From the IMG/VR virus record IMGVR_UViG_3300028048_000103, positions 1 to 64,000 of that record: DNA of 64,000 bases; one strand, 5' to 3'. The translations under genes were made by a program, and so were the position numbers. The notes under the pieces are model-generated. The model was not told the DNA's origin and made no database searches. It saw only the letters and a list, made by a program, of their open reading frames with translations. This stretch comes from a virus. Its lineage: Duplodnaviria; Heunggongvirae; Uroviricota; Caudoviricetes. Below, in pieces: positions 1,883-31,429 of this stretch (its first letter is position 1; the number at the start of each line of letters is the position of its first letter).

Positions 1883-2221
1883 TTATTTTGTTTTTTTGTA
1901 CATGTCAGTAGGCGCTTCAAGGGCAAGTTCTTTCTCAATCAAGTCACGATAGTCAAAATGATGGGCATTGAGCCAATCAATATCTTGCATTGTATATCGC
2001 AAAGTATCATAACCAAATTCAGTATACTCTTCCTCAGTCATAGAAGACATTGGACGGAGATAGGGTTTAATCTTTTCAATATCATCATAATAATTTGAAA
2101 GAATAAATGGAGTAAGTGTTAATTCCTTCCATTCTTCAACACTTGATACATCTACTTTAACTCCATACGGCAATCTTGCACAAAGGTCTTTCAATAAAAG
2201 TTGTTTTTCTTTTTGTGTCAT
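1883..2221 (-). CDS. family A paralog (MTQKEKQLLLKDLCARLPYGVK ... KPYLRPMSSMTEEE ... DWLNAHHFDYRDLIEKELALEAP)
   Basis: 112 aa. Shares conserved N- and C-terminal blocks with 2658..3035, 5256..5690, 6458..6871 and 6925..7602. Confidence 0.6.
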   Translation of the reverse strand: MTQKEKQLLLKDLCARLPYGVKVDVSSVEEWKELTLTPFILSNYYDDIEKIKPYLRPMSSMTEEEYTEFGYDTLRYTMQDIDWLNAHHFDYRDLIEKELALEAPTDMYKKTK

Positions 2222-2273
2222 ATCCTATTCAGTTTTTATACATACCTTCAGGTGCTTCCATACTGTTGCCAAA

Positions 2274-2654
2274 TTACCATTTATTAAAAATTCTTTCCCA
2301 CAAATTTCTATTTCTGAGACAGTTAATAGTTTTTTCGTGCTGCTCGGCAATATCCTTAAAGTTTTTAACCATCGCCGAGAGTCTATCTATCTCATTCTGC
2401 GCCTTTTTAAGACTTTCCTCCTTTGATATGATTGATAGACGGGGTATGTCAGAACAAATGTGGGAAATGCCTGTAAGGTTTTCGGTTGACAGATATATTT
2501 TGTATTCTATATAAGTTCCACGTTCCTCACAGTCTTTCTTCAATTCTTCCCTCGCTTTTTTAAGGTCTTCGCTATCCTTTACCAGTTCTTGATATTCATC
2601 CCAAGGAACAAACACTTTTTTCTGTTCTTTTTCTTCCATATATTTCTTTGACAT
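2274..2654 (-). CDS. hypothetical coiled-coil protein
   Basis: 126-aa ORF, K/E-rich and heptad-like. Tightly packed between two family A genes. Confidence 0.5.
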   Translation of the reverse strand: MSKKYMEEKEQKKVFVPWDEYQELVKDSEDLKKAREELKKDCEERGTYIEYKIYLSTENLTGISHICSDIPRLSIISKEESLKKAQNEIDRLSAMVKNFKDIAEQHEKTINCLRNRNLWERIFNKW

Positions 2655-2657
2655 AAT

Positions 2658-3035
2658 CTATTCAGTTTTATACATATCCTTTGGTGCTTCAAGGGCAAGA
2701 CCCATTAGAATTAAACCTCTCCAATCAAGGTGATGGCGGTGAAAGAAGTCAAATTGTTTAATATTCGCAATATATAAGGGAATAGGTGTTTTAATATACT
2801 TCCACGCATCAGTCTCATGAGGTCTTAGTCTGGATAGAGCTATACATTCTTTCTCAGTCATACTCGACATTGGACGGAGATATGGCTTGAATTCTTCATC
2901 CCTCCTTCGTGCAACACTTAATACAAACTCGTCAAGTACAATCGGAGCGATGACGCTTGGAAACCACATTTTTACCCCATAAGGTAACCTTGCACTGAGG
3001 TCTTTAATCAATAGTTGTTTTTCTTCTTGTGTCAT
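2658..3035 (-). CDS. family A paralog
   Basis: 125 aa. Carries MTQEEKQLLIKDLSARLPYGVK, KPYLRPMSSMTEKE and HHLDWRGLILMGLALEAPKDMYK. Confidence 0.6.
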   Translation of the reverse strand: MTQEEKQLLIKDLSARLPYGVKMWFPSVIAPIVLDEFVLSVARRRDEEFKPYLRPMSSMTEKECIALSRLRPHETDAWKYIKTPIPLYIANIKQFDFFHRHHLDWRGLILMGLALEAPKDMYKTE

Positions 3036-3250
3036 ATCTAAATCAAATTAAAAAGGGCGAAGGCCATCAATGCAAGGGAGATAAATTTGCCTAAAACCAT
3101 CCTTGCCACTCCGCCCTATGGTTCTACTTCTTTTTCTTATTAAGTAAATCAAACGACATTGCTCCAATAAATCCACAGATTAGAGCTGCTACTGGAATAA
3201 TCCAAAATGGAATTGTTATTGTCATATTACAATTATTTTAATTGTTTATT

Positions 3251-4348
3251 TTATTTACAAGAGTTACCATTAAAATACGAATCAAATTCTGTTCTAAACC
3301 AATATTGAATACCGTTACACAGTTCATTTACAGATTCTTCCATTTCATCATAGTCTTGGAAAGGGGCTTTGCTTCTCAACCAGAAAACACCGGTTGGATT
3401 GGTATCGGTTGAATCCACAAGTAACTCCCATTTTCCATCAGAATAATTATGCTCAACGCATCTTCCAAGTCGTGAGATTGTAATAACATCATCACAGTAA
3501 AACCATATAGAATACCTGTCCTTCAGATGTCCACAACAAGATTCAAATGTATCTATTGATGGGATGGAATTGAGAATATCACAAAGTTTAATACATTCCT
3601 TATCCATATTTCCATCATATTTTTTATCGCTTGGTTTCCAAGAAGGATGATACTTCTCTATATATCTCATTATTTTAGCCCAGTCATTCTCCTCGAAAGC
3701 CTTGTCTATATCCTTACATTCTCCATTTGATAGACTCATTTTTCCATCAGGTCTATTCTCGTCAAGGTAGTTCATAAATGCTATTGCAAGATGATGTTTA
3801 CCAAGTTTGTACGCTTCGTTTTTCTCTTTGTATATTTCATCTTTAGACTGAGGACGGAGGGATTTGAGTTTCTTCAGTATGTCATCTCTTGTAATGCCTA
3901 ATCTTTCTAATTCTTCATTGGGAATATAAGCCGTAAATCCCCAAAAAGTCTTCTCATCCTCTTCACTCCACTCATTAGAACAGAGTTTTGCTACATCCTC
4001 ATTCTTCTTTTTAAGATTTAGAGAAAGGGATTGGAGCCAGTTGATTTGCTCATTATATTTTTCAATGGTCTTGCCTGTTGTAGCGAAAGTATAATTTCTT
4101 TCAAACTCTATATCTTTGATAATACTCTGCCTTATCTTTTCATCTTCCTCGCTCCACTCTTGTTTTGGCAAATCATATTCGCCATCACGAATTGCTCTAA
4201 GAAGACCAATCTTTCCATCATAACCGCAGAATGATTTGGCGGCTTTTTCATAGTCATCTATTATAGAGTCTAACAATTTCGCCTCCTCCTCGCCCCACTC
4301 CCATGGCTTCTGTTCTTTCTGCTGCTTTATGTAATTTTTATTTTCCAT
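3251..4348 (-). CDS. WSEEDE-motif protein (family B)
   Basis: 365 aa. Contains PKQEWSEEDEKIRQSIIKDIEFERNYTFATTGKTIEKYNEQINWL and a second NEWSEEDEK. About 70 aa are near-identical to 14504..15859. Confidence 0.6.
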   Translation of the reverse strand: MENKNYIKQQKEQKPWEWGEEEAKLLDSIIDDYEKAAKSFCGYDGKIGLLRAIRDGEYDLPKQEWSEEDEKIRQSIIKDIEFERNYTFATTGKTIEKYNEQINWLQSLSLNLKKKNEDVAKLCSNEWSEEDEKTFWGFTAYIPNEELERLGITRDDILKKLKSLRPQSKDEIYKEKNEAYKLGKHHLAIAFMNYLDENRPDGKMSLSNGECKDIDKAFEENDWAKIMRYIEKYHPSWKPSDKKYDGNMDKECIKLCDILNSIPSIDTFESCCGHLKDRYSIWFYCDDVITISRLGRCVEHNYSDGKWELLVDSTDTNPTGVFWLRSKAPFQDYDEMEESVNELCNGIQYWFRTEFDSYFNGNSCK

Positions 4349-4372
4349 ATTAAATTAATTTTTATTAATATA

Positions 4373-4394
4373 CTTACAAAAATCGTGCCAAAAA
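4373..4394 (-). promoter_or_regulatory. class I promoter-like motif
   Basis: cttacaaaaatcgtgccaaaaa, about 25 nt upstream (minus sense) of the ATG at 4348. Confidence 0.45.
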
Positions 4395-4616
4395 CCCTTA
4401 TTTTATTTTACATATATTTAGAAAATGTAGAACCATATTTACGGGTAGTGACATTAAGTTTATTTTTATTTTTCCATAATGTTTTTTCATATAGGTATCG
4501 TATCATGTTTTTCCTTTCAACCTGTTGTGTTCTACCATTAAAAATGATTTCAGGTAGGGTACACAAAGAGGGGGAATCAATATTTTTCATAGACATTATG
4601 TTTATGGAGTATAATA

Positions 4617-5228
4617 TTATTTATTATTTATGTAATCAATTATATCTTGTTCGAGTTTATTTTCATCTGTAATATAGTTTACGATTGTTTTCAGTTCATC
4701 ATTGTTAATTGTTTTAATTTTATCTTGTGGTTCAACGACATAACGAACATCATATTTTGGGTTTCTTGCTTCAAACACTGTAAAGGTATAGTAACCGTGT
4801 TTTTCTTGTTTCAGGAGTCTAAGTATTCCTTGACCATAGCCATTGGCATCTTTATATTTATCATCGCAAAAGTAGCAATATTGTGCATCTTCTTTCAACG
4901 TTAATATAAATGGAAGAAAATCATCCTTTGTATATTTTTCTTTTATTGGTAAGGGTATGAGGATTGGTTTATAAAAGTTAAAGTATTTCTCGTCCACATA
5001 TTTATCACCAATGGTTGTTTTAATTTCCTTATCAAGCCATGAATTATTTTTAAGGTAGAAGAGGTTTTCATTACCATCGCATTGTGTAAACAAATCGTCA
5101 AAAATATATTCATCATTATTTTTCTTATTTTCATTTAATGATTCTTTTCCAATAATTGGGAGTGATGATGCTGCTATTGCTGTTGTAGCGCCAAACAATT
5201 TTTTTAAAAAGTTTCTTCTATTTTCCAT
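4617..5228 (-). CDS. hypothetical exported protein with twin-arginine (Tat)-like signal peptide
   Basis: 203 aa. N-terminus MENRRNFLKKLFGATTAIAASSLPIIG matches the S/T-RRxFLK motif followed by an A-rich hydrophobic region and an AxA-like site. Confidence 0.5.
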   Translation of the reverse strand: MENRRNFLKKLFGATTAIAASSLPIIGKESLNENKKNNDEYIFDDLFTQCDGNENLFYLKNNSWLDKEIKTTIGDKYVDEKYFNFYKPILIPLPIKEKYTKDDFLPFILTLKEDAQYCYFCDDKYKDANGYGQGILRLLKQEKHGYYTFTVFEARNPKYDVRYVVEPQDKIKTINNDELKTIVNYITDENKLEQDIIDYINNK

Positions 5229-5255
5229 AATATTGTTGTATTTTTATATTTTATT

Positions 5256-5690
5256 TTAATTAATTTTATACATATCCTCTGGTGCTTTAATGGCAAGTCC
5301 TTTTTCAATTAATCCACGATAGTCAAAATGATGAGCGTTTAGCCAATCCATTTGCTCAAGACTTAATATACATGTCGATTTCTTTTCTCCAATCCTCAGA
5401 ATACTGTCACTTATCTGTATAAACTCAAATGTTTCTTCCTCAGTCATAGAAGACAGCGGACGGAGATAAGGTTTTAATACAATATTATCATTGAGAAAAT
5501 CATTGATGATATCAGTATTAAGTGTTTTTTTTAGTGTAATGTCGCACACTTGATTAACAGGCATGCTTATGCCGTTATCCATTGGTTTCAGTTCCCTGAC
5601 TACACCTTTTTTGGTAACCCTGCATTTTACCTTATAAGGCAATCTTGCACTAAGGTCTTTTAATAATAGTTGTTTTTCTTCTTGTGTCAT
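5256..5690 (-). CDS. family A paralog
   Basis: 144 aa. Same terminal blocks (MTQEEKQLLLKDLSARLPYKVK ... KPYLRPLSSMTEEE ... DWLNAHHFDYRGLIEKGLAIKAPEDMYK) with a divergent middle. Confidence 0.6.
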   Translation of the reverse strand: MTQEEKQLLLKDLSARLPYKVKCRVTKKGVVRELKPMDNGISMPVNQVCDITLKKTLNTDIINDFLNDNIVLKPYLRPLSSMTEEETFEFIQISDSILRIGEKKSTCILSLEQMDWLNAHHFDYRGLIEKGLAIKAPEDMYKIN

Positions 5691-5691
5691 A

Positions 5692-6081
5692 TTAAATCAA
5701 ATTTTTTAAGCAATACTTAATAGCTTCTTCGCAGGCTTCTTCGTAAGTATTATTGTGAGATTCCCTATCACAGCCTTTTGGTGCCCCGTCCTCATAGCTA
5801 TACCACACATAACTCATGTCTATATGTTGCTGTATTGATATAAAGATTTTATGTACTTCTCTCAGCCACTTCATTGCCATTTGGATGGTTGGTGCATCAA
5901 GGTATCTTTCAGGATATCTTGACCTGTCTGTAATATTATATTCACTGACAATTTTATCTAAATTATATTGCTTATCAGTATTCCAATTAAATCCCTTTTC
6001 CTTCAAGAGTTTTGCTGTTTCAAAGCTGACGTAATCTTCAGTAATCATATTATTTTGCATAAAAATTCCAAAAAGGTTCAA
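5692..6081 (-). CDS. hypothetical protein
   Basis: 129-aa ORF. Overlaps the next ORF by about 30 nt. Confidence 0.45.
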   Translation of the reverse strand: MNLFGIFMQNNMITEDYVSFETAKLLKEKGFNWNTDKQYNLDKIVSEYNITDRSRYPERYLDAPTIQMAMKWLREVHKIFISIQQHIDMSYVWYSYEDGAPKGCDRESHNNTYEEACEEAIKYCLKNLI

Positions 6082-6439
6082 TACTTACAATACCATAAAA
6101 CGGACGTTTTATACCATCCTTTTCGTCAGAAAAGTTTTGTGTAATGACTTTCATGAGGAACCCTTTTCCGGTACTGCCATCGCACCAATCATAGGGATTT
6201 TCTCCGTAATCCTGCTTATTCAGGTGCTGCTTCACTATCTCGGAGACAATATGCACATCGAAATCAAAAGGGAATGGTTTCCATCCGTCTTCTACCGTCC
6301 ATCCAAGACAATATTTACCATCCTTTGAAATTTGATAGGACTCACACTTGCCACCGGACATACTAATGGCAAATTCAATAGCCTTTTCGAGTTGACCCAT
6401 ATCACCTGATACCTCAAATATCTGTTTACTTGAAAACAT
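6050..6439 (-). CDS. hypothetical protein
   Basis: 129-aa ORF. Confidence 0.45.
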   Translation of the reverse strand: MFSSKQIFEVSGDMGQLEKAIEFAISMSGGKCESYQISKDGKYCLGWTVEDGWKPFPFDFDVHIVSEIVKQHLNKQDYGENPYDWCDGSTGKGFLMKVITQNFSDEKDGIKRPFYGIVSIEPFWNFYAK

Positions 6440-6457
6440 AATTGTTGAATTTTAGTT

Positions 6458-6871
6458 TTAGTTTTTATTATACATTCCTTCAGGTGCTTCAAAAGCAAGA
6501 CCTTTTTCAATGAGTCCACGATAGTCAAAGTGATGTTCATTTAACCAATCCATTTCTTCATATACTTCACACTCACCATCAGCAATCAAAATGGAAAGGC
6601 TATTATAGTACTTTCTCTCTTCCTCAGTCATAGAAGACATTGGACGAAGATATGGAAGATAGGTTAGTATATAACCACTACCCTCTTCTTCTTTAATATC
6701 TCCGTGAAACCGAATATACCCATCAGAGTTTATATCATCTAATATCATTGGTACTGGATATTCACAACCTTTGTCTTCATCCCAATAGAGGTATTTTACT
6801 TTTAGTCCATATGGTAACCTTGCACAAAGGTCTTTCAATAAAAGTTGTTTTTCTTCTTCTTGTGTCATCAT
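6458..6871 (-). CDS. family A paralog
   Basis: 137 aa. Carries MMTQEEEKQLLLKDLCARLPYGLK ... LPYLRPMSSMTEEE ... DWLNEHHFDYRGLIEKGLAFEAPEGMYNK. Confidence 0.6.
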   Translation of the reverse strand: MMTQEEEKQLLLKDLCARLPYGLKVKYLYWDEDKGCEYPVPMILDDINSDGYIRFHGDIKEEEGSGYILTYLPYLRPMSSMTEEERKYYNSLSILIADGECEVYEEMDWLNEHHFDYRGLIEKGLAFEAPEGMYNKN

Positions 6872-6894
6872 AATTAATAATATTTTCTTGTTTA

Positions 6895-6917
6895 CTTACA
6901 AAAATTATGCCAAAACA
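6895..6917 (-). promoter_or_regulatory. class I promoter-like motif
   Basis: cttacaaaaattatgccaaaaca, upstream (minus sense) of the start at 6871. Confidence 0.45.
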
Positions 6918-6924
6918 ATTTATT

Positions 6925-7602
6925 TTACATCAGTTTATTCAAATATTTAATAAATTCTTCTATGATATAGTTTGACATATCATCAGGATGGGTAAACCCT
7001 TTTTTAGTGAGTTCATTTTTAAGTTCAGAATTTGTCCACAGTCCCCATTCATTTCTAATCCATCTTCCAAGTGAGTTGTGCATAGAGATTGCACCGTTTT
7101 CGATAAGATATTGTTTATCTTCTTTTGAAATTATTTTGGCAAGGGTAGACATTGCTTCATCAACTGTTTTAGGGACAGGGGTTTCATTTTCTACTTCAGT
7201 TTTATACATATTATCAGGTGCTTCCAATGCAAGTTTTTTTTCAATTAAACCTCTAAAATCAAAATGATGTGCATTGAGCCAATCAAGCCCCTTTTCGCTA
7301 AACAACATTGAACCATCTGATGCGTCATAAATAAAGGATAATCTTTCAAATTCAATCCTCTCTTCTTCTGTCATGCTTGACATTGGACGGAGATAAGGAC
7401 GATAATTCCAAATATCATATATATGTCCAATAGCCACACTATTAGATTTTGGGTATATCTGATTGGTGGATAATTGCATCGTATAGATATTGAAATCTGT
7501 CGGAACAAGTATCAAATCGGAATTTTCAAATCCTAATTTTACTCCATACGGCAACCTTGCACAAAGGTCTTTAAGTAGTAGTTGTTTTTCTTTCTCTGTC
7601 AT
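6925..7602 (-). CDS. family A paralog with about 90-aa C-terminal extension
   Basis: 225 aa. Carries MTEKEKQLLLKDLCARLPYGVK ... RPYLRPMSSMTEEE ... DWLNAHHFDFRGLIEKKLALEAPDNMYK plus an extra C-terminal domain. Its ATG overlaps the stop of an upstream small ORF as ATGA. Confidence 0.6.
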   Translation of the reverse strand: MTEKEKQLLLKDLCARLPYGVKLGFENSDLILVPTDFNIYTMQLSTNQIYPKSNSVAIGHIYDIWNYRPYLRPMSSMTEEERIEFERLSFIYDASDGSMLFSEKGLDWLNAHHFDFRGLIEKKLALEAPDNMYKTEVENETPVPKTVDEAMSTLAKIISKEDKQYLIENGAISMHNSLGRWIRNEWGLWTNSELKNELTKKGFTHPDDMSNYIIEEFIKYLNKLM

Positions 7603-10371: not shown

Positions 10372-10836
10372 TTAAAGATTTTTGTTCTTTATAATTTTAT
10401 CATGGTCAAAAGCCCATTGATATTCATCAATATCTTTAATGGGAATCCATTTTATTTCGTCAACTTCATTTGGTTCTGAGAATTCAGAAGTAAGGTGTTC
10501 ATCATTAAGCCCATAATAAATGCAATCATAGATAAAGGTAACATTTTGTCTACCGTTAAGACTATCATCTACATAATTAATTTTAAGTTCTGAAACATCA
10601 TCTTTAGCAAGACCGGTTTCTTCATGTAATTCTCTATATGCAGCATTTTGTAGTGTTTCATCATAATCAAGATAACCACAAGGGCAGCACCATTTACCAA
10701 CATTATCAGGACAACCAACACCTCTTTTAACTGCAAGAAATGCTTTTCTTTTAGGGTCATATACAAAGACAGCAACGGCCACACTTCTACTTATCCAATA
10801 TTCTTTATTATCAATATTTACAGGAAAATTTCTCAT
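10372..10836 (-). CDS. Nudix hydrolase
   Basis: 154 aa. Nudix box GYLDYDETLQNAAYRELHEETGL (Gx5Ex7REuxEExGu). Confidence 0.75.
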   Translation of the reverse strand: MRNFPVNIDNKEYWISRSVAVAVFVYDPKRKAFLAVKRGVGCPDNVGKWCCPCGYLDYDETLQNAAYRELHEETGLAKDDVSELKINYVDDSLNGRQNVTFIYDCIYYGLNDEHLTSEFSEPNEVDEIKWIPIKDIDEYQWAFDHDKIIKNKNL

Positions 10837-11312
10837 TTTAAATTTCTATTTTTATAATTTTCGATACAAGTTGGAATTATTTTTTGATATTCAGGGTTAT
10901 TAAAGAGAGGTGAAGTCAGAATCATATCTGCTGTTGTTCTATTTGTTGCAAAGGCAATATTATATAATGATGCCAATCTTGTTAATGCTGACACATCATT
11001 TTGATGTCCTTGTTGAATAAGGTTGTCACAGAAAAATATAAGGACATCAATTTTTCCTTCTGCAATCATTGCACCTATTTGTTGGTCACCACCAAGTGGC
11101 CCTGATAAAAGTGGTTTTACAGATAAAGGCATCGTCACCCAATCTTGTGTTATTTCACCGGTACAATAGTTATTAACTGCAATATTCCTTAATATTTTTG
11201 CGGTTGTTCCGGTTGCATATAATTTATGTGGATAGAGTTTTTGTTTATTATATTCTACCCATTCTTTTAATTCAGTTTTTCTACTATCGTGTGCTACTAA
11301 TGCTATATTCAT
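10833..11312 (-). CDS. mgsA: methylglyoxal synthase homolog
   Basis: 159 aa. NIALVAHDSRK...LYATGTT...GPLGGDQQIGAMIAEGKIDVLIFFCD...ALTRLA...NIAFATN is collinear with the bacterial MgsA signature blocks. Confidence 0.7.
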   Translation of the reverse strand: MNIALVAHDSRKTELKEWVEYNKQKLYPHKLYATGTTAKILRNIAVNNYCTGEITQDWVTMPLSVKPLLSGPLGGDQQIGAMIAEGKIDVLIFFCDNLIQQGHQNDVSALTRLASLYNIAFATNRTTADMILTSPLFNNPEYQKIIPTCIENYKNRNLK

Positions 11313-21307: not shown

Positions 21308-22456
21308 TTAATATGATGCATAGTTATTAAAATAGTTTTTAATTAAAATAATTGGTGTTCCTTTCTGCCCTGAACCACTAACCAAATCACAAAGTGATGC
21401 AATTAAGTCCCTATACTGTCTTGGTGTTGTACCTTGTGCTATCATGTTTCCAACCAAATTGTGTGCATTGTATTCCTTAATTTCATTTTTAATTGCATTG
21501 TCAAGTTCAGTACCATGCAAGTCCTTATATTTATCATCAGCAAACGCCTTAATTTTAATCTCATTAGGTGTTGATTCAAATATTTCAGGGTCAGTATAAC
21601 CAGGCATTGTAACAGGGTCAGCAAATTCATTAATAGAAGTACCTAAAATACCATTAATCATTGGACTATGGAAACAACCATCACCATATACACAAACAAG
21701 TACATCTTTTCCTGTAACAATTTTAATCTTGTCCTTTATGTCTTCACAAACTCTAACACAGTCCTTAATGTTGGGAAATAGTTTAATTTTGTCCTCAGTT
21801 GCTTTATTAGAACCTAAAACACCCCAATCACATCTGTCAGAAAGTATATCAGCCAAAGTATACCAATATCTAAAACCACTGTATCTTTCTTTAAACTGAT
21901 TGTAATCATGAAGACCACAATAAAGAACATTTGTCGGATGTTCATCTGATGGATTGAAATTACTTTCAACAATAACACATTCAACACCTTCGGATTCAAT
22001 AATTTCTCTATAATATTCTGTATAATCCATACCTGTAAACGGATGATTTCTGCTTATATTTCCAACCTCATCAATCAAAGGCATGTATAGATATATTTTT
22101 CCGTCAAAAAAACCCAATTCAGCGCCTTTCTTATATATACCCCTTGCAATTCCTCTAAGTATCATGGCAAACCTGTTTCTTGAATAAATCATGTTCACCA
22201 AAGTAAGGACATTACCGAAAAACTTTTTCTTAACATCTTCAGCAATGTCATCAATAGTAGCATAATTACCAAAACTCCTTGCTACAACAGATTCCGTTAT
22301 GCCAATAATATCTTTGTCTTCGATATCATAAATGTCATTATGTATTCTTGTAGCATTAAACACACTGTCAATAACAGCATCTACAATATTATCACCTTCT
22401 TTAATAATTGGTGCTTTAATACCAAAAGCACTTGTACAAATTCCACTTCTAACCAT
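21308..22456 (-). CDS. hypothetical protein
   Basis: 382-aa ORF. A class II motif lies upstream at 22476-22505. Confidence 0.5.
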   Translation of the reverse strand: MVRSGICTSAFGIKAPIIKEGDNIVDAVIDSVFNATRIHNDIYDIEDKDIIGITESVVARSFGNYATIDDIAEDVKKKFFGNVLTLVNMIYSRNRFAMILRGIARGIYKKGAELGFFDGKIYLYMPLIDEVGNISRNHPFTGMDYTEYYREIIESEGVECVIVESNFNPSDEHPTNVLYCGLHDYNQFKERYSGFRYWYTLADILSDRCDWGVLGSNKATEDKIKLFPNIKDCVRVCEDIKDKIKIVTGKDVLVCVYGDGCFHSPMINGILGTSINEFADPVTMPGYTDPEIFESTPNEIKIKAFADDKYKDLHGTELDNAIKNEIKEYNAHNLVGNMIAQGTTPRQYRDLIASLCDLVSGSGQKGTPIILIKNYFNNYASY

Positions 22457-23373: not shown

Positions 23374-23412
23374 AAACGCTACAATACAGATAAATACAAA
23401 TTATTTTAAATG

Positions 23413-23502
23413 CAGAAGGTACTGGATTCGAACCAGTGGCTCCATCAAAAAAAGAGCGCCGGTTTAGCGAACCGGTAGTTTAAACCACTCACTCAACCTT
23501 CT
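23413..23502 (-). tRNA. type II tRNA (long variable arm), probable anticodon GCU (Ser)
   Basis: Reverse complement: acceptor AGAAGGT/ACCTTCT, T-arm ACTGGTTCGAATCCAGT, anticodon stem CCGGT/ACCGG with loop TCGCTAA (C33 is atypical), and a 14-nt variable arm. Confidence 0.55.
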
Positions 23503-23927
23503 GTAGCGCAATTTTGTAAGTTCCAACTAACAACTTCAATTGCCACCATATCGTGTATACCCAATATGGAAGTTTTGAACATTATTCCACAAAACACCCT
23601 GTAAGAGAAAAAATTGTTTAGATGTCCCCAGAAAACAATTTTTATAAAAAAAAACACAAACTTTACTACATCACTGCGACTGTTGCAACCATATTGGCAT
23701 ACCCTTTCGGATTTTACGCATCTGTTGGCAAGGTGCTTCTCTTAGGATTTATGAATTATGTTCCTAAGTACAAGATATGTCAGCATCCCATCGGTTCGTT
23801 GTGGTCTCATATTACATGGACATATGTACACTATTCCATGCTATTACCTGACGCACTTGGCAAGGTTCTACTCTAAAAATAGAACGAGTTTGTGTTAACT
23901 TATCAAAGAAATGATAAGGAGGAAAAA

Positions 23928-24704
23928 TTAGTATATAAAAACTTCACCTTTTGCACTTCTTGGTGCTCTTGAACTAATTGAGCCACATGGCGGATTTACA
24001 TATGATTCAACAAAAGTAAATCTTGTTGGCTTTCCGCCATTGTTTTTGTATTTTTCACTATTTTTATGTAAATCAGTGAAATACTCCTGAGAAAAATCAT
24101 TAAAAGTTGCATCAGAGCCAAATTCCATATCAATTTCTCCGTTTTTTGTTATATATTTTGGGTTTTCATTACCCTTTTTAAATAAAAAAGAATCTTGATT
24201 ATATTTTTTTGACATTTCAATACCGAAATCATAAAGTTTATCTATTCCAAATACATTACCGTCAGTTGTTCTGTTATAGACCATAAATGATTTCTCATAA
24301 ACATTTTTTTCTGTCTCAGAACCAAGATTTTCAATAAAACCGCCATAAACCGGTGTGTATGAAAGATGGTTTTTTCTTAGAATATTAATAAAATCCTTCA
24401 CTCTTTCATTATTAATATGTTTGCTTTTTTCTTCAACATTGGGGTCATTAGGGTTAGTACCTAATTCCTCAGGATTTGACCTACATGGACTAATAACAAT
24501 GTAGCCATTATCACTATGTCTTGCAAGCATCCTTTTGGCATTTGTTTCAGTTATTGGCACTAAATAAGAATTTTCTGAATAATGTGAAACATTAACCCTT
24601 TCGTCAGAAGGAAATGACTTCCTGTTGCTTTCTTTTATTTCGTTAAGCACTGTTTTTGTGCTTTCAAATATTATTGTTTTTAGTTGTGATTCAGTTATTT
24701 TCAT
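23928..24704 (-). CDS. hypothetical protein
   Basis: 258-aa ORF. Confidence 0.5.
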   Translation of the reverse strand: MKITESQLKTIIFESTKTVLNEIKESNRKSFPSDERVNVSHYSENSYLVPITETNAKRMLARHSDNGYIVISPCRSNPEELGTNPNDPNVEEKSKHINNERVKDFINILRKNHLSYTPVYGGFIENLGSETEKNVYEKSFMVYNRTTDGNVFGIDKLYDFGIEMSKKYNQDSFLFKKGNENPKYITKNGEIDMEFGSDATFNDFSQEYFTDLHKNSEKYKNNGGKPTRFTFVESYVNPPCGSISSRAPRSAKGEVFIY

Positions 24705-24728
24705 TATTTGTGATGTTTAAAATTTTTG

Positions 24729-24800
24729 AGCCTCCTGTCGGAATCGAACCAACATCTACTGATTACAAATCAGTTATAATAACCTTTATACTAAGGAGGC
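24729..24800 (-). tRNA. tRNA-Thr (anticodon UGU)
   Basis: Reverse complement: acceptor GCCTCCT/AGGAGGC, anticodon stem ACTGA/TCAGT with loop TTTGTAA, T-arm GTTGGTTCGATTCCGAC. Confidence 0.65.
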
Positions 24801-24844
24801 GTAAAGCCATGATTTATAAGGAAAACCATGGCGAAAAACCATGA

Positions 24845-24925
24845 CCACCCCTTTGTGGAACCCATCGTATTAGGGAGTCGAACCCTGCTACTTGCATATT
24901 CGAAAACGTGCCCAAGGGGACCTTA
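24845..24925 (-). tRNA. tRNA-like element, not resolvable into a cloverleaf by eye
   Basis: Contains a T-loop-like GGGTTCGACTCCC (reverse complement), but no 7-bp acceptor pairing could be found. Possibly degenerate or intron-containing. Confidence 0.25.
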
Positions 24926-24945
24926 CTAACCGTTCAGGATGTTTC

Positions 24946-24975
24946 TTTTTTTACAAATATACAAAATAAAATATT
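24946..24975 (-). promoter_or_regulatory. class II (TAnnTTTG) promoter-like motif upstream of the first tRNA block
   Basis: ttttttacaaatatacaaaataaaatatt. Confidence 0.4.
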
Positions 24976-25085
24976 AAAATTCAAATATTATTGAATAATG
25001 TTCAGAATTTTTATCTTTGTCCCTTGTCCAAATTCTTACATTGAATGATAATATTTTCATTTTTTTTGTTTTTTAAAAAATTATT

Positions 25086-25676
25086 TTATCTTCTTCCACC
25101 ATTATTACCTCTTGCACCACCACCTCTTGGTGGATTACTTGGTCTTGGCTGTGGCCTTGGCGGTGCAACATTTGGTCTTGGTGGTTGTGGTACAGGTCTT
25201 ACGTATGGTATTGGCCTTGGAATCGGCCCATAATAATGATACCTTGGTGTATAGTAATAACCACCGTATGTTCTTCTATATGAAACATGATACCTGATTT
25301 TACCTGTTCGCTTTTCCACATATTTATACAGTGAAGTAATATCAATTAAACCATGATAATAACGTTCATATAACTCAGGAAAACGTGTTCTCAAACATTC
25401 AATTATTTCAGCATGATTTCTGTAATAATACCTACAAAATTCATAAGAAACATCATAAGAAATATTGCCATTTAAAGTGTTTTCTCTTATTGATTTAATC
25501 CTTAAAACATCTTCCTGATAATAATAATTAAGTTCAGGGTAATAAGTTTCAAGTATATAAGAAATATCATAATCCTTATATACAGCACCAGCAGTAACAT
25601 AATTTCTTGTATCAACACTTGCACAAGAACTTAAAATACTTATAATCAAAATAAGTATTAAATTAATCCTTTTCAT
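25086..25676 (-). CDS. lipoprotein with Pro/Arg-rich low-complexity C-terminus
   Basis: 196 aa. MKRINLILILIISILSSCAS has a lipobox. The tail reads PRPIPYVRPVPQPPRPNVAPPRPQPRPSNPPRGGGARGNNGGRR. The ORF is Tyr-rich. Confidence 0.5.
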   Translation of the reverse strand: MKRINLILILIISILSSCASVDTRNYVTAGAVYKDYDISYILETYYPELNYYYQEDVLRIKSIRENTLNGNISYDVSYEFCRYYYRNHAEIIECLRTRFPELYERYYHGLIDITSLYKYVEKRTGKIRYHVSYRRTYGGYYYTPRYHYYGPIPRPIPYVRPVPQPPRPNVAPPRPQPRPSNPPRGGGARGNNGGRR

Positions 25677-25701
25677 TTTATTTTAGTTTTTTTTTTATTT
25701 G

Positions 25702-25776
25702 GGAGTTATAAGAGATTCGAACTCTTTCCTTCAGAACCACAATCTGACATGCTTCGACCATTAACACCAATAACTC
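25702..25776 (-). tRNA. tRNA-His (anticodon GUG)
   Basis: Reverse complement: acceptor GAGTTAT/ATAACTC, anticodon stem TCAGA/TCTGA with loop TTGTGGT, T-arm AAGAGTTCGAATCTCTT. Confidence 0.55.
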
Positions 25777-25804
25777 CATGTTAAAAACTTTCAGAAAACT
25801 TTTT

Positions 25805-25874
25805 ACCGGTTTTAGGAATCGAACCTTTATCACCTGAACAAATCAGTTGTTCTACCATTGAACTATAACGTCCG
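25805..25874 (-). tRNA. tRNA-like gene, possible anticodon UUG (Gln); acceptor and anticodon stems imperfect
   Basis: Reverse complement has a canonical D-arm AGTTCAATGGTAGAAC and the T-loop GGTTCGATTCC. The acceptor pairs only 4 bp (CCGG/CCGG) and the anticodon stem has a mismatch. Confidence 0.35.
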
Positions 25875-25933
25875 GATTTTTGCCACGTTAAATAAAATTA
25901 AAACATTGCTGTTAGTTTTCTTAATTTTATTTG

Positions 25934-26006
25934 TAGGGCCAACGGTATTCGAAACCGTGTGATAGGAATGAAAATCCTATATCCTTGACCACTAGATGAT
26001 AGCCCC
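25934..26006 (-). tRNA. tRNA-Glu (anticodon UUC)
   Basis: Reverse complement: acceptor GGGGCTA/TGGCCCT (two G-U pairs), anticodon stem TAGGA/TCCTA with loop TTTTCAT, T-arm ACGGTTTCGAATACCGT. Confidence 0.55.
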
Positions 26007-26419
26007 ATAAAATACCTGTTTTGTTAATTTTCTTTGTTTTTGTTCTAAGAAGTGTACCAAAAAAACTCGCCACATGCCTGTGTTTATCCCTGTACAGGTG
26101 AACATACTCTAAAACCTCACTCCTTCATGGGTCGAACAATTTTCTATAAACAACTAATTGTAATTATCCTTTATCTTAACATCATGCCTTCAATTAAGAG
26201 AATAATCCTCGATTAATAGTTCAGAAGGTTAAGTTTCCCTCTATACCTATGTTGGCTCTTTTAACTGTTCTGCAACACCACAACAATCAGTATTGGTCAA
26301 GTATTAGGATTTGCACCAACTTTTTACAACCTTATTATAACACAAAAAAATTAACTAGTACTTTTAAAATATTATAATTAGTTCTCCACTTGACTTCGAA
26401 GCCTCACAAGTGGTATACT

Positions 26420-26496
26420 TGGTGGAATAGACAGGATTCGAACCTGCAAAATGACACCGTGCAAGGGTGTTGCTGTACCATTGAAGCCACTACCCC
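26420..26496 (-). tRNA. tRNA-Ala (anticodon UGC) with encoded CCA
   Basis: Reverse complement: acceptor GGGGTAG/CTATTCC, anticodon stem ACACC/GGTGT with loop CTTGCAC, T-arm GCAGGTTCGAATCCTGT, then ACCA. Confidence 0.65.
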
Positions 26497-26636
26497 AAAA
26501 ATACCGCATTTACGGCAGTGCGGTCAGCCAAAACATACGCTCTTCGAGTGATGTTAATTTTACAGGAAACATTTTTTTCAGAATGTTAGATTAAAAGTCT
26601 AGTCCTTAAAAAACTTGCTGTGTGTTTCCTTATTGT

Positions 26637-26714
26637 TGCGGAGGGTAGGATTCGAACCGTTTGATACGTCCTCCTGCTTATGAGACAGGCGAGCTGACCA
26701 CTGCTCCACCCCGC
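26637..26714 (-). tRNA. tRNA-Met/fMet-like (anticodon CAU) with atypical T-arm
   Basis: The 5' half GCGGGGTGGAGCAGTGGTCAGCTCG closely resembles bacterial initiator tRNA. The anticodon arm is CCTGT-CTCATAA-GCAGG. The T-arm region is about 6 nt too long and pairs poorly. Confidence 0.45.
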
Positions 26715-26908
26715 AATATTTAAAAATAAACGATTTTAGACTAGATTCGTGAACCGTTTTTATGCTTAGAGCCATAGAAAATTTGCAACTTCTCTATGTT
26801 GTTACTTGAACGTGCGAATCCACAAACACACCGCTACCCCTTGAAACCACCTAAAAAGTGTGTACATCACTTTCATTATCAATGATTACCTTTCAAGTAT
26901 CTCTATTG

Positions 26909-26983
26909 TGGGAATGAAGGAATTCGAATCCCTGACCCTTTGAATGTAAGTCAAATGCTCTAACCCAACTGAGCTACACTCCC
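26909..26983 (-). tRNA. tRNA-Val (anticodon UAC)
   Basis: Reverse complement: acceptor GGGAGTG/CATTCCC, D-arm TAGCTCAGTTGGGTTAGAGC, anticodon stem TTTGA/TCAAA with loop CTTACAT, T-arm AGGGATTCGAATTCCTT. Confidence 0.65.
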
Positions 26984-27814
26984 AAAAATACGCCCATTTG
27001 TTCCTCCATGTTGCCACAGTATGTTGTGAAGGACTTCTCACGATATTAGCCCAATGCAACCTCTTTACGCTACTTCTGCACCTATATTTGGAATTAATGT
27101 TGCTTACCTACGTATACCCATCGCAAATTTTAACCTTGAACCTCTGTACATTGCTCCAATCTGTAGCAGGACTCTCCCAAGGTTGGCAGGAACAACCCAA
27201 CAAGACTATTTTCTATTGAGGATTTGAACCTCTGCACATCTTAATCATAGAAAAAAAACAGGAAACATTATAAAAACCCAATTTATTATGCTTAATAATA
27301 AGTTAATTTGCTGTATGTTTCCTTATAAAAATAAATACAAAAAATATCTAAAAAAAACTACTTGATAGTACAAAAAGATATTATTGGTTTAGCCAAAACC
27401 ATTTTGTTTCGATTAGTCCTCTACCTAACCGTGTAGGATTTCCTTTCCACATTTAGAATGGCTTATTCTATTTAGTATGTTGGCTAAGGAAATATTCTAA
27501 TCCCCAACAACTTTATTTTTCAAAAAAAAACGGATGCATGTCAATCGTATTCCGTTATTCTGCGTTAACCTCACATGCCAAGGTCATATAGTCCACAACA
27601 CACCCATATGACTAACTAGTATTTTCATTCTAAAAATTACTTAATAGAATATGAGCAGCCACTATTATAATGGAACCAATAAAACCACTATTGAATTTCT
27701 GCTATTGTTTAGTTTCTAATTTTTCAACATTGTCAAATAACTTACATTGCAAATATATAAACATTAATTGACAAAAACAAATTTATTTTTACTCAAACAT
27801 CAAAAAACTTTTTG

Positions 27815-27853
27815 TACTTCGGCTGCGACTCGAACGCAGGACCAACTGCTTAG
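27815..27853 (-). tRNA. 3' exon (positions 35-73) of intron-split tRNA-Arg (anticodon UCU)
   Basis: Reverse complement: CTAA-GCAGT-TGGTC-CTGCGTTCGAGTCGCAG-CCGAAGT-A. It pairs perfectly with the 5' exon at 28408..28441 (acceptor 7/7 including one G-U, anticodon stem ACTGC/GCAGT 5/5). Confidence 0.7.
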
Positions 27854-28407
27854 CTTACCACTATAACTTTCGTTACCAATATAAGACTAAAAATGACCTA
27901 CAGCACAAGAGGATTGCAGTCATTCCGTAACATCCCTTTTATGTTCCTCTTATTTCGGGTCTTTATATTGTTTGTGGTCTGGACTATCCCTTAACCATAT
28001 TGAAATCTTGCAAGATTGGATTAGGGTTCGTTCTTACCCCGAATAGCAGGTCGCTTTCCTGCACAGTTTGTTTTAATTTTAGAATCCAAATTTCAACTTA
28101 GGTTTCTTCCGTCTAGTCTCTACACACTGTCTATTACAAATACTGAAATGTAGCTTAATTGCATATATTTGCCTTCTATGCAATAACGCCTTTTCATTAC
28201 ATTCCCAATTAACACCTTTTGCAAACGAGGTGAGTATTTGTTTTTAACATTGGTTCGGTATTAGCATATATTAACAGGACTCTTCACCTGTCCGACTCAT
28301 ATAGAGTGTCTGATTTGATTTTATACTTAGCTTTCACCGAATTTGGAAGTTTCTACATCTAAAATTTCTTTTAGTGCACTCCTAATTAATTGATTATCAA
28401 TTACTTA
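27854..28407 (-). mobile_element. group I intron (about 554 nt) in the anticodon loop of tRNA-Arg(UCU), inserted after position 34
   Basis: Both flanking tRNA halves match exactly. The minus-strand reading has an R-like element GTAGAGACTA (28108-28117), an S-like GATAGTCCAGACC (about 27975-27990) and a P-like AATTCGGTGAAA (about 28335-28346) in the canonical order. It ends in G before the 3' exon, and the 5' exon ends in U. Confidence 0.6.
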
Positions 28408-28441
28408 AAGGCAGTTGCTCTATCCACTGAGCTACCGAAGC
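28408..28441 (-). tRNA. 5' exon (positions 1-34) of intron-split tRNA-Arg (UCU)
   Basis: Reverse complement: GCTTCGG-TA-GCTC-AGTGGATA-GAGC-A-ACTGC-CTT. Confidence 0.7.
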
Positions 28442-28465
28442 ATAAATAATATTTTTAAAAATTAG

Positions 28466-28504
28466 TGACCCCTGTGGGATTCGAACCCACGACCCCAACA
28501 TTAA
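28466..28504 (-). tRNA. 39-nt tRNA 3' half (anticodon N-U-U; acceptor AGGGGTC), 3' exon of the second intron copy
   Basis: Reverse complement: TTAA-TGTTG-GGGTC-GTGGGTTCGAATCCCAC-AGGGGTC-A. Same length and junction context (gtaccactataactttcgttacca) as the Arg 3' exon. Confidence 0.5.
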
Positions 28505-28932
28505 CGTACCACTATAACTTTCGTTACCAGTTGCAAACAAGGAGTTTAGCCCTATATTTACATACCTGTTTGTGGTCTGGACTGTATCTTAACCATATTG
28601 AAATCTTGCAAGATACTGTATGAAGAGATTTGCTGAGTTGCACAGCCTGTATCTAACTCCGGTTTCACTGGGAACATTCATACAATAATTTCAACTTAGG
28701 TTCCTCCTGTATAGTCTCTACACACTGTCTAAAGGTATTGCATTCTTGCAACTAAACTATCTCACTCCTTTTAACATTGGCTCGGTATTACCATCAGCAA
28801 CATACTTTCAAATCATTAATCCTCAGTATTCCCAAAGCATTCATTTACTTGTACGTTCTGTTAAGGTTTCACCGAATTAGGGAGGTTCTACATCCGAAGT
28901 TTCCTTCGGTGCACTCAAATTACACATTGTTC
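28505..28932 (-). mobile_element. second group I intron copy (about 430 nt), homologous to 27854..28407
   Basis: Shares four conserved blocks with intron 1: 3'-terminal accactataactttcgttacca, the S-like block at 28567-28612, the R-like block at 28688-28730, and the P-like block plus gtgcactc at 28870-28908. The central regions are divergent. Confidence 0.5.
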
Positions 28933-28967
28933 AAGACCGCTGCATTAGACCACTCTGCCACCTCACC
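28933..28967 (-). tRNA. tRNA 5' half resembling tRNA-Ser(UGA) (class II D-arm), 5' exon of the second intron copy
   Basis: Reverse complement: GGTGAGG-TG-GCA-GAGTGGTCTAA-TGC-A-GCGGT-CTT. This follows the architecture of a bacterial tRNA-Ser(UGA) 5' half. The acceptor GGTGAGG does NOT pair with the 3' half at 28466..28504. Confidence 0.45.
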
Positions 28968-29109
28968 GTAAAATAAAGATTATTCTGAACTCTGTCACCA
29001 TTAACAAATATTAGATAAAAATCTAATATTTAACAAATATTAGGTAAAAGTCTAATAATATTGTTAAACATTTATTCAATGTTACTGTCAGTTTTTTCTT
29101 TATTAAGAA

Positions 29110-29160
29110 AGTCACCATAGTATGCTGCAAGTTGGAATTGAACCAACAACTATATTCAGT
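29110..29160 (-). tRNA. orphan tRNA 3'-half-like element (T-arm GTTGGTTCAATTCCAAC, acceptor TTGCAGC)
   Basis: Good T-arm and 3' acceptor, but no canonical D or anticodon arm upstream. Possibly another split or degenerate tRNA. Confidence 0.25.
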
Positions 29161-29307
29161 TTTTTCATAATCACAGCCTTCGTGACCATATTTTATTTTC
29201 AATTTCACATATTCAATAAAATAATTTGTATTTATCAGTATTGTCAAAGAGCAATTAATTTCATTGCAAATATATAAATCTTTTTTTTAACAACAAAATT
29301 AATTTTA

Positions 29308-29378
29308 GTTGAAGGCAGAGGAATCGAACCTCTATTCTGGGAACCAAAATCCCATGTCTTGCCTTTAGACGAGCCTTC
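29308..29378 (-). tRNA. tRNA-Pro (anticodon UGG)
   Basis: Reverse complement: acceptor TGAAGGC/GCCTTCA, D-stem GTCT/AGAC, anticodon stem TGGGA/TCCCA with loop TTTTGGT, T-arm AGAGGTTCGATTCCTCT. Confidence 0.65.
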
Positions 29379-29405
29379 AATTTATTTCAAAGAACAATTG
29401 TTTAT

Positions 29406-29428
29406 CTTACAAATATCGTGCCAAAATA
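29406..29428 (-). promoter_or_regulatory. class I promoter-like motif upstream of tRNA-Pro
   Basis: cttacaaatatcgtgccaaaata. Confidence 0.4.
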
Positions 29429-29451
29429 TAAATTTTAACATTTTTTTTTTG

Positions 29452-29488
29452 CGGGAATGATAGGATTCGAACCTATAACCTACGGATT
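29452..29488 (-). tRNA. 3' exon of split tRNA-Asn (anticodon GUU)
   Basis: Reverse complement: AA-TCCGT-AGGTT-ATAGGTTCGAATCCTAT-CATTCCC-G. It pairs 7/7 (acceptor) and 5/5 (anticodon stem) with the 5' exon at 29591..29626. Confidence 0.6.
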
Positions 29489-29490
29489 AG

Positions 29491-29562
29491 ACTCAGCAAA
29501 AGGAATCGAACCTTTTTTTGGACTTGCAATGCCACCCGTCCTAACCATTAGACGATACTGAG
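29491..29562 (-). tRNA. tRNA-like element embedded inside the tRNA-Asn intervening sequence
   Basis: Reverse complement: acceptor CTCAGTA/TGCTGAG, D-arm GTCT-AATGGTTA-GGAC, T-arm AAAGGTTCGATTCCTTT. The anticodon-arm region GGTGGCATTGCAAGTCC does not form a canonical stem. Confidence 0.4.
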
Positions 29563-29590
29563 TTGGTTCGTTTCGGTGAACCATTCCGTT

Positions 29591-29626
29591 AACAGTCCGT
29601 TGCACTAACCGTTGTGCTACATTCCC
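29591..29626 (-). tRNA. 5' exon of split tRNA-Asn (GUU)
   Basis: Reverse complement: GGGAATG-TA-GCAC-AACGGTTA-GTGC-A-ACGGA-CTGTT(AA). Confidence 0.6.
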
Positions 29627-29638
29627 AATTATAAACTA

Positions 29639-29872
29639 CTATTCAGTAGTTTCAGTTTCTTCAGTCTTTACTGTATCTTCATTTTTAGGCATTGTTGCTG
29701 CTGTAACAGGTGCAACTGAATTCATCTTTTCATATTCCTCCTTCAACTTTTCAAGCCTCTTTTGTCTTGCCAACATAAGTCTCTTCTTTTCAGTAAGACT
29801 ATTTCTAACGTTTTCATTTGCATCCCTTCTTGGTGCATCAACATGTTTCTTAATGTGCTTTCTCTTTGTCAT
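29639..29872 (-). CDS. hypothetical basic K/E-rich protein
   Basis: 77-aa ORF embedded in the tRNA region. Confidence 0.4.
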   Translation of the reverse strand: MTKRKHIKKHVDAPRRDANENVRNSLTEKKRLMLARQKRLEKLKEEYEKMNSVAPVTAATMPKNEDTVKTEETETTE

Positions 29873-29901
29873 AATATATAAAGTTTAAAATTAAAAATTT
29901 G

Positions 29902-29975
29902 TACCCTCTCTCAGATTCGAACTGAGACTTTATAGGTTTTGAATCTATTCACTCTTCCAATTGGTGTAAGAGGGT
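29902..29975 (-). tRNA. type I tRNA with anticodon CAA (Leu codon UUG), atypical
   Basis: Reverse complement: acceptor ACCCTCT/AGAGGGT, T-arm CTCAGTTCGAATCTGAG, anticodon stem ATAGA/CCTAT (one mismatch) with loop TTCAAAA. The variable arm is short, unlike canonical tRNA-Leu. Confidence 0.45.
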
Positions 29976-30185
29976 AAAAAATATTGAGTTACTTGTCCTT
30001 ATCACCTTACAGTTGGTTCGTACTTCCTTCGCCTTGGATAATATATTGTTCATGCATGTCAACTATATTACCTGTACACCTTTACAACCCGCTATTGTTT
30101 TCACTGTAACACATACTTGCAAAAGCTGAAAGTTGTTTTCCTAATCCCTCACTCAATATTAAAATTTCAAAGAACATTTATTTAT

Positions 30186-30208
30186 CTTACAAAAATCATG
30201 CCAAAGGC
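30186..30208 (-). promoter_or_regulatory. class I promoter-like motif
   Basis: cttacaaaaatcatgccaaaggc, pointing leftward into the non-coding region 29981-30180 and the tRNA at 29902. Confidence 0.4.
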
Positions 30209-30234
30209 AATAAAAGCAAACATTTTTTTTTAAA

Positions 30235-30915: not shown

Positions 30916-30929
30916 ATTTTCTTTTTTTG

Positions 30930-31014
30930 TGGGAGTGGTTAGATTCGAACTAACTGTGTGTCATTGTAATGGATTTACAGTCCATCGCCCATCCACCATC
31001 TGAGCAGCACTCCC
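30930..31014 (-). tRNA. tRNA-Tyr (anticodon GUA), long variable arm
   Basis: Reverse complement: acceptor GGGAGTG/CACTCCC, anticodon stem ATGGA/TCCAT with loop CTGTAAA, a 16-nt variable arm, T-arm GTTAGTTCGAATCTAAC. Confidence 0.65.
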
Positions 31015-31095
31015 GTAATTAAATTCTTATTGAATTTAGAAGTCAATGTATCTCATCTTCCTACGGCTTAAAAATCCGAAAAACATACATAGTTG

Positions 31096-31178: not shown

Positions 31179-31250
31179 ATCATTTCATCGTATCACTTTT
31201 ATAAAAACCTCATATGTTTAAAACAACAATGCAAATATATAAATCTTTTT

Positions 31251-31406: not shown

Positions 31407-31429
31407 AATCATTAAATTTTATATTTTTG

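Follow-up and report, generated by a model that had tools for sequence, protein, structure and literature searches.

A stretch of 64,000 nucleotides from a tailed-phage genome (Caudoviricetes; positions 1 to 64,000 of IMG/VR record IMGVR_UViG_3300028048_000103), referred to here in its entirety as the window, carries two adjoining minus-strand genes, an mgsA-like gene encoding a homolog of bacterial methylglyoxal synthase (MGS) and, behind it, a gene encoding a Nudix hydrolase. A preliminary description made from the sequence had reported that the two open reading frames (ORFs) overlap by 4 nt, and both were recovered at their exact coordinates, with the shared ATGA read directly in the sequence (Table 1). 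On the minus strand the junction is ...aat tta aaA TGA gaa att..., where the Nudix start codon occupies positions 10836-10834 and the MgsA stop codon positions 10835-10833. The window has a GC content of about 30%, with nearly all transcription on the minus strand, and comes from a phage of very large genome that infects Bacteroidales in the gut or rumen. An identical MgsA protein is encoded on three independent public contigs; on two of these (26.7 and 7.0 kb) it is followed by the same Nudix hydrolase and then by ORFan genes, while the third, at 1.7 kb too short to reach the Nudix position, carries mgsA with its upstream ORFans. The recurrence of MgsA and Nudix on independent contigs therefore indicates that the pair is no assembly artefact of the window.

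Table 1. Features of the mgsA-Nudix locus, in window coordinates.
Feature	Coordinates	Strand	Evidence
mgsA, 159-aa methylglyoxal synthase (Bacteroidales type)	10833..11312	minus	ORF; NF003559, Pfam MGS, PDB and Foldseek matches
Nudix hydrolase, 154 aa	10372..10836	minus	ORF; Pfam NUDIX, phrog_1198, AlphaFold2/Foldseek
ATGA overlap of MgsA stop and Nudix start, 4 nt	10833..10836	minus	read from sequence
Variable surface insertion of MgsA, ~aa 43-62	11127..11186	minus	PDB and multiple alignments; low model confidence
Nudix box G54-x5-E60-x7-R68-E69-L-x-E72-E73-x-G75-L76	10609..10677	minus	read from translation

The MgsA protein scored 171.2 bits (E = 1e-50) against the NCBIfam equivalog NF003559, 'methylglyoxal synthase', for which the cutoff is 84, and 49.5 bits (E = 4.9e-13) against Pfam MGS. 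A sequence search of the PDB returned 13 matches, 11 of them methylglyoxal synthases (2.8e-37 to 8.5e-19) headed by Thermotoga maritima 1VMD (2.8e-37) and Escherichia coli 1B93 (3.2e-32); the other two were designed armadillo-repeat proteins with E > 0.002, and no CarB-type domain was found among the 13. The AlphaFold2 (AF2) model of MgsA has a predicted local distance difference test score (pLDDT) of 77.8, with low values confined to an insertion (about 53 for residues 51-60). When this model was compared with the PDB using Foldseek, ranks 1-26 were all occupied by MGS chains (E of 2e-13 to 7e-10, template-modelling (TM) scores of 0.66-0.76, 34-50% identity), and the MGS-like domains of carbamoyl-phosphate synthetase (CarB-type) started at rank 27, with E >= 4e-5 and 16-20% identity. 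The preliminary description had proposed that a better match to a CarB-like family sharing the same fold would overturn the assignment; true methylglyoxal synthases outrank CarB-type domains in both sequence and fold, and that objection falls away. The protein carries every defining feature of a methylglyoxal synthase that could be tested, and the sequence and fold comparisons make it very likely that the first gene encodes a genuine enzyme of this kind.

E. coli residue numbers were carried over to the phage protein through the PDB alignment and an alignment of 151 sequences (69 viral and 80 bacterial homologs). Window residues H8, D9, K12, T34, T36 and T37 correspond to E. coli H19, D20, K23, T45, T47 and T48, residues S70, G71, D76, D96, H103 and D106 correspond to S65, G66, D71, D91, H98 and D101, and the equivalents of G46 and R107 are likewise kept. 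The catalytic residues Asp71 and His98, together with His19, Asp20, Asp91 and Asp101 (E. coli numbering), are thereby all present, as are the phosphate-binding residues Lys23, Thr45, Thr47, Thr48, Ser65 and Gly66 (window K12, T34, T36, T37, S70 and G71). Five of the six residues in the catalytic set never vary among the 69 viral and 80 bacterial homologs, the sixth, D20, being Asn in four viral copies; these copies carry D20N together with G66E, and most other site residues are invariant in the same set. MGS is a homohexamer with inter-subunit contacts, which in E. coli involve Arg150, and is allosterically inhibited by phosphate. The C-terminal R156 of the window protein is invariant in alignment A1 and lies at most one alignment position from E. 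coli R150. The alignment of catalytic Asp and His residues that had been suggested as a check thus revealed no loss, and the earlier account of a full-length MgsA-like protein with conserved catalytic blocks holds for every catalytic and phosphate-binding residue.

Relative to characterized bacterial MgsA proteins (EC 4.2.3.3; E. coli 1B93/1EGH and T. maritima 1VMD), the phage protein has the same fold, active-site and phosphate-binding residues and a similar length at 46-50% identity, but adds after the TGTT motif a variable insertion of 16 residues that is seen in no solved structure and appears in the PDB alignments as gaps of 6 and 10 residues. It further differs from the E. coli enzyme in being phage-encoded, in the absence of the 11-residue N-terminal extension and in the presence of Asn instead of Pro92. 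Multiple alignment indicates that the insertion varies in length among Bacteroidales and phage homologs. Because the insertion and the Asn at the position of Pro92 are common to all Bacteroidales homologs, they are features of the lineage rather than phage innovations. Only two consistent differences separate phage from bacterial proteins, both of them conservative (V90 versus M and I131 versus L), and phage-specific changes to the active site or to regulation were rejected on this basis. In a comparison of window positions 11127-11312 (minus strand) with three related loci (L001, L148 and L151), the C-terminal two-thirds of MgsA is nearly invariant, whereas strong divergence in the N-terminal third and the insertion loop accounts for most of the differences between close relatives in phages.

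The closest bacterial MgsA proteins are those of Prevotella, Segatella, Bacteroides, Paludibacteraceae and other Bacteroidales. These presumed donors are 60-70% identical to the phage protein and share with it the position of the insertion and a DNL motif, but differ in codon composition, that of the phage copy being fitted to an AT-rich phage: the GC content at third codon positions (GC3) is 0.175 for the phage mgsA, against a mean of 0.198 ± 0.056 for long ORFs in the window and values of 0.25-0.68 for host copies. Synonymous divergence between phage mgsA and host genes is saturated. Between the window and its closest IMG/VR relative, L001, the ratio of nonsynonymous to synonymous divergence (dN/dS) is 0.05 at a dS of 0.67, and more distant phage pairs give 0.13-0.25; judged by these ratios, mgsA is under strong purifying selection. 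In a neighbor-joining tree, which carries no support values, phage MgsAs mostly form several groupings of their own, distinct from the main bacterial clades. Taken from the sequence comparisons, the history of the gene is one of capture from Bacteroidales by ancestors of a group of large or huge phages, which have kept it since. The gene does not sit at a contig edge; phage-type genes encoded on its own strand extend for tens of kb to either side. Viral flanks, Bacteroidales homologs and selection within the virus, the genomic marks of a phage auxiliary metabolic gene, are hence all present, and the description of MgsA and Nudix as side-by-side auxiliary genes of a phage is borne out by the intact residues and the phage context.

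MgsA of this type was found at no fewer than 64 loci in IMG/VR, more than 60 of them on large contigs of low GC content. The closest relative (L001, 94% identity) was found on the 363-kb viral contig IMGVR_UViG_3300028886_000029 and has a Nudix gene behind it. A first, rumen-like set spans contigs of 138-411 kb; near mgsA, several of them have helicase, AAA ATPase, primase, protease and leucine-rich repeat (LRR) genes in common with the window. A second set is represented by a 51.5-kb contig whose MgsA is 80% identical to that of the window and is also encoded on a contig of up to 413 kb; here the mgsA neighbors are thymidylate synthase, a fusion of dihydrofolate reductase (DHFR) with dCMP deaminase, an HD hydrolase and an RNA ligase. 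The third is a large human-gut clade, with contigs mostly of 90-180 kb and about 30% GC, CobS/CobT-like and metallophosphoesterase neighbors and Bacteroides phage BS162P1 as the best cultured match. A profile-based scan additionally located mgsA types that are not of the Bacteroidales kind (46-51% identity) on other large phage-like contigs, next to genes for GroEL, a baseplate spike, homing endonucleases, peptidyl-tRNA hydrolase and helicase, and mgsA therefore seems to have been acquired more than once.

None of the well-characterized cultured phages in the phage database carries mgsA, and a megablast search with the region and two related loci against 50,697 phage records gave no match. PHROGs holds no family for MgsA or for eight small neighboring ORFs, and PADLOC gave no defense-system match for MgsA. 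Two loci lie in bacterial metagenome-assembled genomes (MAGs). One is a 143-kb contig (L072) in a Phocaeicola dorei bin, with about 30% GC, a phage-type mgsA and a homolog of the window head protease; the other is a 2.5-kb contig (L143) in a Lactobacillus johnsonii MAG, also with about 30% GC, whose MgsA is identical to that of the human-gut IMG/VR clade. Both look like phage contigs mis-binned into MAGs. In the phage database, the short unannotated records 'Listeria phage LM 4-14-1', 'LM 4-11-1', 'Enterococcus phage Efs 1-1-1' and 'IME_EF3' (hits H4-H10 and H12) contain Firmicutes-type mgsA genes of 38-46% identity and may be host DNA deposited under phage names.

A literature search on phage-encoded MgsA found catalog mentions only, with no residue-level, evolutionary or functional analysis, and found no report of mgsA in gut or rumen Bacteroidales phages. 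In a Lake Baikal virome (PMC8066274), mgsA on a large phage-like contig was likewise read as an auxiliary gene of carbon metabolism; that entry is a catalog mention and concerns unrelated freshwater phages. The presence of mgsA in lists of viral auxiliary genes is thus already known, and the gene described here is a credible and fairly ordinary borrowed metabolic gene. Among described phages, the Jug phages, presented in PMC12880540 as huge Bacteroidales gut phages of 360-402 kb with 27-30% GC and the standard code, resemble the window, by description, in the size of its relatives' contigs (344-411 kb), a GC content of about 30%, the standard code and Bacteroidales host signals; the main text of that paper makes no mention of MgsA or Nudix.

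The second gene matches Pfam NUDIX (PF00293) with 78 bits (cutoff 21.1, E = 8.9e-22) and also phrog_1198. Its Nudix box, G54YLDYDE60TLQNAAYR68E69LHE72E73TG75L76, is intact, and across 57 relatives G54, E60, R68, E69 and E73 never change and E72 hardly does. The AF2 model (pLDDT 91.7) has only Nudix enzymes as top Foldseek matches, the best TM-score being 0.70, to 3GZ8, the Nudix domain of NrtR bound to ADP-ribose, and a C-terminal AFDH motif is common to the window protein and 3I9X. The AFDH motif and weak similarity lean towards the ADP-ribose-binding domains of NrtR and NadM-Nudix proteins, but subfamily scores all fall far below curated cutoffs: the NCBIfam matches, to NtrR (33 bits, cutoff 400) and to NMN adenylyltransferase/ADP-ribose pyrophosphatase, are weak, and NUDT15, RppH and Ap4A hydrolases fit the fold about equally. 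PADLOC gave a single weak match, to candidate family PDC-S07. The predicted enzyme probably cleans up or recycles a nucleoside-diphosphate-linked compound, with ADP-ribose as the best guess for its substrate. The phage proteins most similar to it come from Prevotella Lak megaphages (43% identity) and from a 642-kb uncultured phage; a phage-database search gave no MgsA match in any of these.

The remainder of the window is consistent with a Bacteroidales phage. The SF1 helicase has Bacteroides phage DAC19 as its best cultured match (34% identity), and a primase, three metallophosphoesterases, an exonuclease, an endolysin and a ClpP-like head maturation protease are also encoded. An array of 16 tRNAs (23412-31764, minus strand; Ser, Thr, His, Glu, two Ala, Met, Val, Gln, three Leu, Tyr, Ile, Cys and Trp) is interspersed with small ORFs, and no suppressor tRNA was seen among the 16. 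Stop-codon recoding, considered on account of the similarity to Lak phages, left no sign in the window: the standard code yields dense minus-strand ORFs, with TAA as the dominant stop. A single 524-aa ORF (34989-36563, minus strand) encodes a fusion of DHFR and thymidylate synthase (DHFR-TS), whereas at L148 (6216-8005) thymidylate synthase is separate and DHFR is fused to dCMP deaminase; the way domains are combined in the folate and dTMP genes is thus fluid among these phages. A sigma-70 family protein with regions 1.2, 2 and 4 (41440-42294, minus strand) adjoins the primase, and a plus-strand island (50860-57342) encodes a BspA-type LRR protein of 437 aa, a 313-aa protein without assignment and a 1320-aa protein carrying BACON and viral BACON domains, which probably serve as structural proteins for binding to the host surface or to glycans, as is typical of Bacteroidales phages. 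Less expected in a Bacteroidales phage is a 382-aa protein of the F420-0:gamma-glutamyl ligase (CofE) family (21308-22456, minus strand; 111.7 bits). Paralogous ORFs of about 110-225 aa, in at least six copies and one with DUF6794, occupy 1883-7602 (minus strand), and the same family recurs in the 363-kb relative (L001 221-2074 and 9202-11055).

Bacterial MgsA releases phosphate from dihydroxyacetone phosphate (DHAP) and serves as a glycolytic overflow or bypass (PMC12291648; PMC12096831). By analogy, the explanation that we favor for the locus as a whole, with a probability of roughly 0.6, is an active, host-derived MgsA that acts as an overflow valve, accompanied by a separate Nudix gene. 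Expressed in the infected cell, the phage enzyme would convert DHAP to methylglyoxal and inorganic phosphate. With host growth halted and sugar uptake and catabolism going on, the simplest account is that it would drain the triose-phosphate pool and free trapped phosphate, so that upper glycolysis and the pentose-phosphate supply could be kept running for heavy phage nucleotide synthesis, a high demand alongside which the DHFR-TS of the phage can be cited; the toxicity of methylglyoxal would be tolerable, since the cell will lyse. The Nudix gene would merely be packed against mgsA in the same transcription unit. We infer activity in vivo and an effect on host glycolysis, and the specific role in triose-phosphate overflow or phosphate release is the more tentative component, possible at somewhat less than even odds.

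Several observations weigh against this explanation. The older equivalog TIGR00160 gives MgsA a score of 139.1, slightly under its cutoff of 146.9, a shortfall probably caused by the 16-residue insertion. The Asn that replaces E. coli Pro92 in all Bacteroidales and phage copies may bear on phosphate regulation, and the phosphate and overflow role is itself borrowed from bacterial physiology. Furthermore, no methylglyoxal-detoxifying or other glycolytic gene was found within ±10 kb (precomputed Pfam matches) or among roughly 30 larger ORFs of the window, and the neighborhood therefore indicates no particular pathway role; the window covers only part of a genome that probably exceeds 300 kb.

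One rival to a separate Nudix gene treats the pair as a functional module of two genes that serve a single pathway. MgsA is followed by Nudix in the window, in L001 and in L151-L153, three lineages of which the last includes an NCBI metagenome contig, and the ATGA overlap in the window would imply translational coupling. All three lineages, however, belong to a single narrow subclade with close synteny, MgsA stands without a nearby Nudix gene at over 60 other phage loci, and the Lak megaphages and the L154 contig have Nudix without MgsA. The overlap itself is not conserved, the two genes being separated by 44 nt in L001 and 38 nt in L151, and in the lineage whose MgsA is 80% identical to that of the window (L148) the position of Nudix is taken by a different partner, an unrelated 243-aa ORF without Pfam match (10474-11205) that overlaps the mgsA stop by 4 nt. 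Nor does a homolog of this Nudix adjoin mgsA at any of 80 bacterial loci, which led us to reject its co-capture with mgsA from the host, and we know of no reaction that joins DHAP or methylglyoxal to a Nudix substrate. The Nudix genes of L001 and L151 are nearly identical (dN 0.005) and the N-terminal thirds of their MgsA proteins are different, which argues for recombination between the two genes and for their independent exchange. A functional module is accordingly quite improbable; MgsA and Nudix are probably independent accessory genes, the Nudix gene coming from a phage lineage, and we conclude that the pairing reflects gene packing in one transcription unit and local synteny.

Three further observations concern the organization of the pair. 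L001 combines a window-like mgsA with an L151-like Nudix gene, and the sequences suggest recombination inside or beside mgsA. A scan for sigma-70 promoters and terminators, which is ill-suited to Bacteroidales promoters, found 24 against 27.5 expected from shuffled sequences, hence no enrichment. The AT-rich MgsA-Nudix spacers of L001 (6484-6527) and L151 (6402-6439) hold TATATTTG directly before the Nudix ATG, in agreement with the Bacteroides -7 promoter consensus, TAnnTTTG; if TATATTTG is a -7 element, Nudix may have its own promoter in these two relatives.

The remaining rivals concern the nature and purpose of MgsA. That the gene is host DNA, brought in by chimeric assembly or a mis-binned bacterial contig, draws some plausibility from the short 'Listeria phage' and 'Enterococcus phage' records, which look like host DNA, but it has hardly any likelihood here: MgsA, Nudix and ORFans recur on two independent contigs and MgsA with the upstream ORFans on a third, tens of kb of same-strand phage-type genes lie on both sides, GC3 equals the phage average and is far from host values, and synonymous divergence from host genes is saturated. 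Given the phage-like GC3 and the phage context, host contamination and chimeric assembly were therefore rejected. Scarcely more probable is the suggestion in the preliminary description that the MGS-like fold had been repurposed, leaving a non-catalytic regulator or binding protein. MGS-like domains do act as allosteric modules in carbamoyl-phosphate synthetase, and they are distant fold matches of the phage protein (Foldseek ranks 27-40); against this stand the full set of catalytic and phosphate-binding residues, almost completely kept in the other phage copies as well, a score above the equivalog cutoff of NF003559, Foldseek E-values for CarB-type domains about eight orders of magnitude worse than those for true MGS, and the combination of strong purifying selection with a lack of phage-specific substitutions of note, the two conservative differences aside. 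The suggestion thus found no support. A more serious competitor, though still an unlikely one, is that methylglyoxal serves as a weapon that would arrest host growth and macromolecule synthesis, damage competing phage or host DNA, or harm neighboring cells after diffusion. Prevotella ruminicola is reportedly a case of methylglyoxal accumulation under sugar excess, attributed to Russell (1993). The enzyme appears fully active from its sequence and model, its product is toxic, Bacteroidales build up harmful methylglyoxal under sugar excess according to references given in PMC12291648, and no detoxifying gene lies within ±10 kb. The phage protein can, however, scarcely be told apart from the host housekeeping enzyme, with no sign of deregulation or targeting, phage DNA and proteins would be damaged as well, and the neighborhood offers no hint of self-protection. 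The weapon and overflow readings are compatible and not mutually exclusive.

The assignment of an intact MgsA and a separate Nudix hydrolase is a well-supported annotation and not a new mechanism. Phages carry host metabolic genes, but to our knowledge few phage-borne metabolic enzymes yield a toxic electrophile, and the interest of the locus rests on this toxic product and on the wide spread of mgsA in large Bacteroidales phage contigs from the human gut and other metagenomes. A far-reaching possibility, which we regard as doubtful, is that mgsA is conserved and active in prevalent large and huge Bacteroidales phages of the human and animal gut, possibly with Jug-type phages among them, in which case phage infection would be a significant, unrecognized driver of methylglyoxal in the gut and rumen, or that methylglyoxal is a deliberate agent of chemical takeover; if so, infection-driven methylglyoxal could affect bacterial competition, phage-phage exclusion and host exposure to a glycating toxin. 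If the enzyme is active in vivo, phage infection would be linked to triose-phosphate overflow, phosphate economy and gut methylglyoxal levels, and this intact, ameliorated and selected mgsA is a worthwhile candidate for the first biochemistry of phage-driven methylglyoxal and phosphate metabolism.

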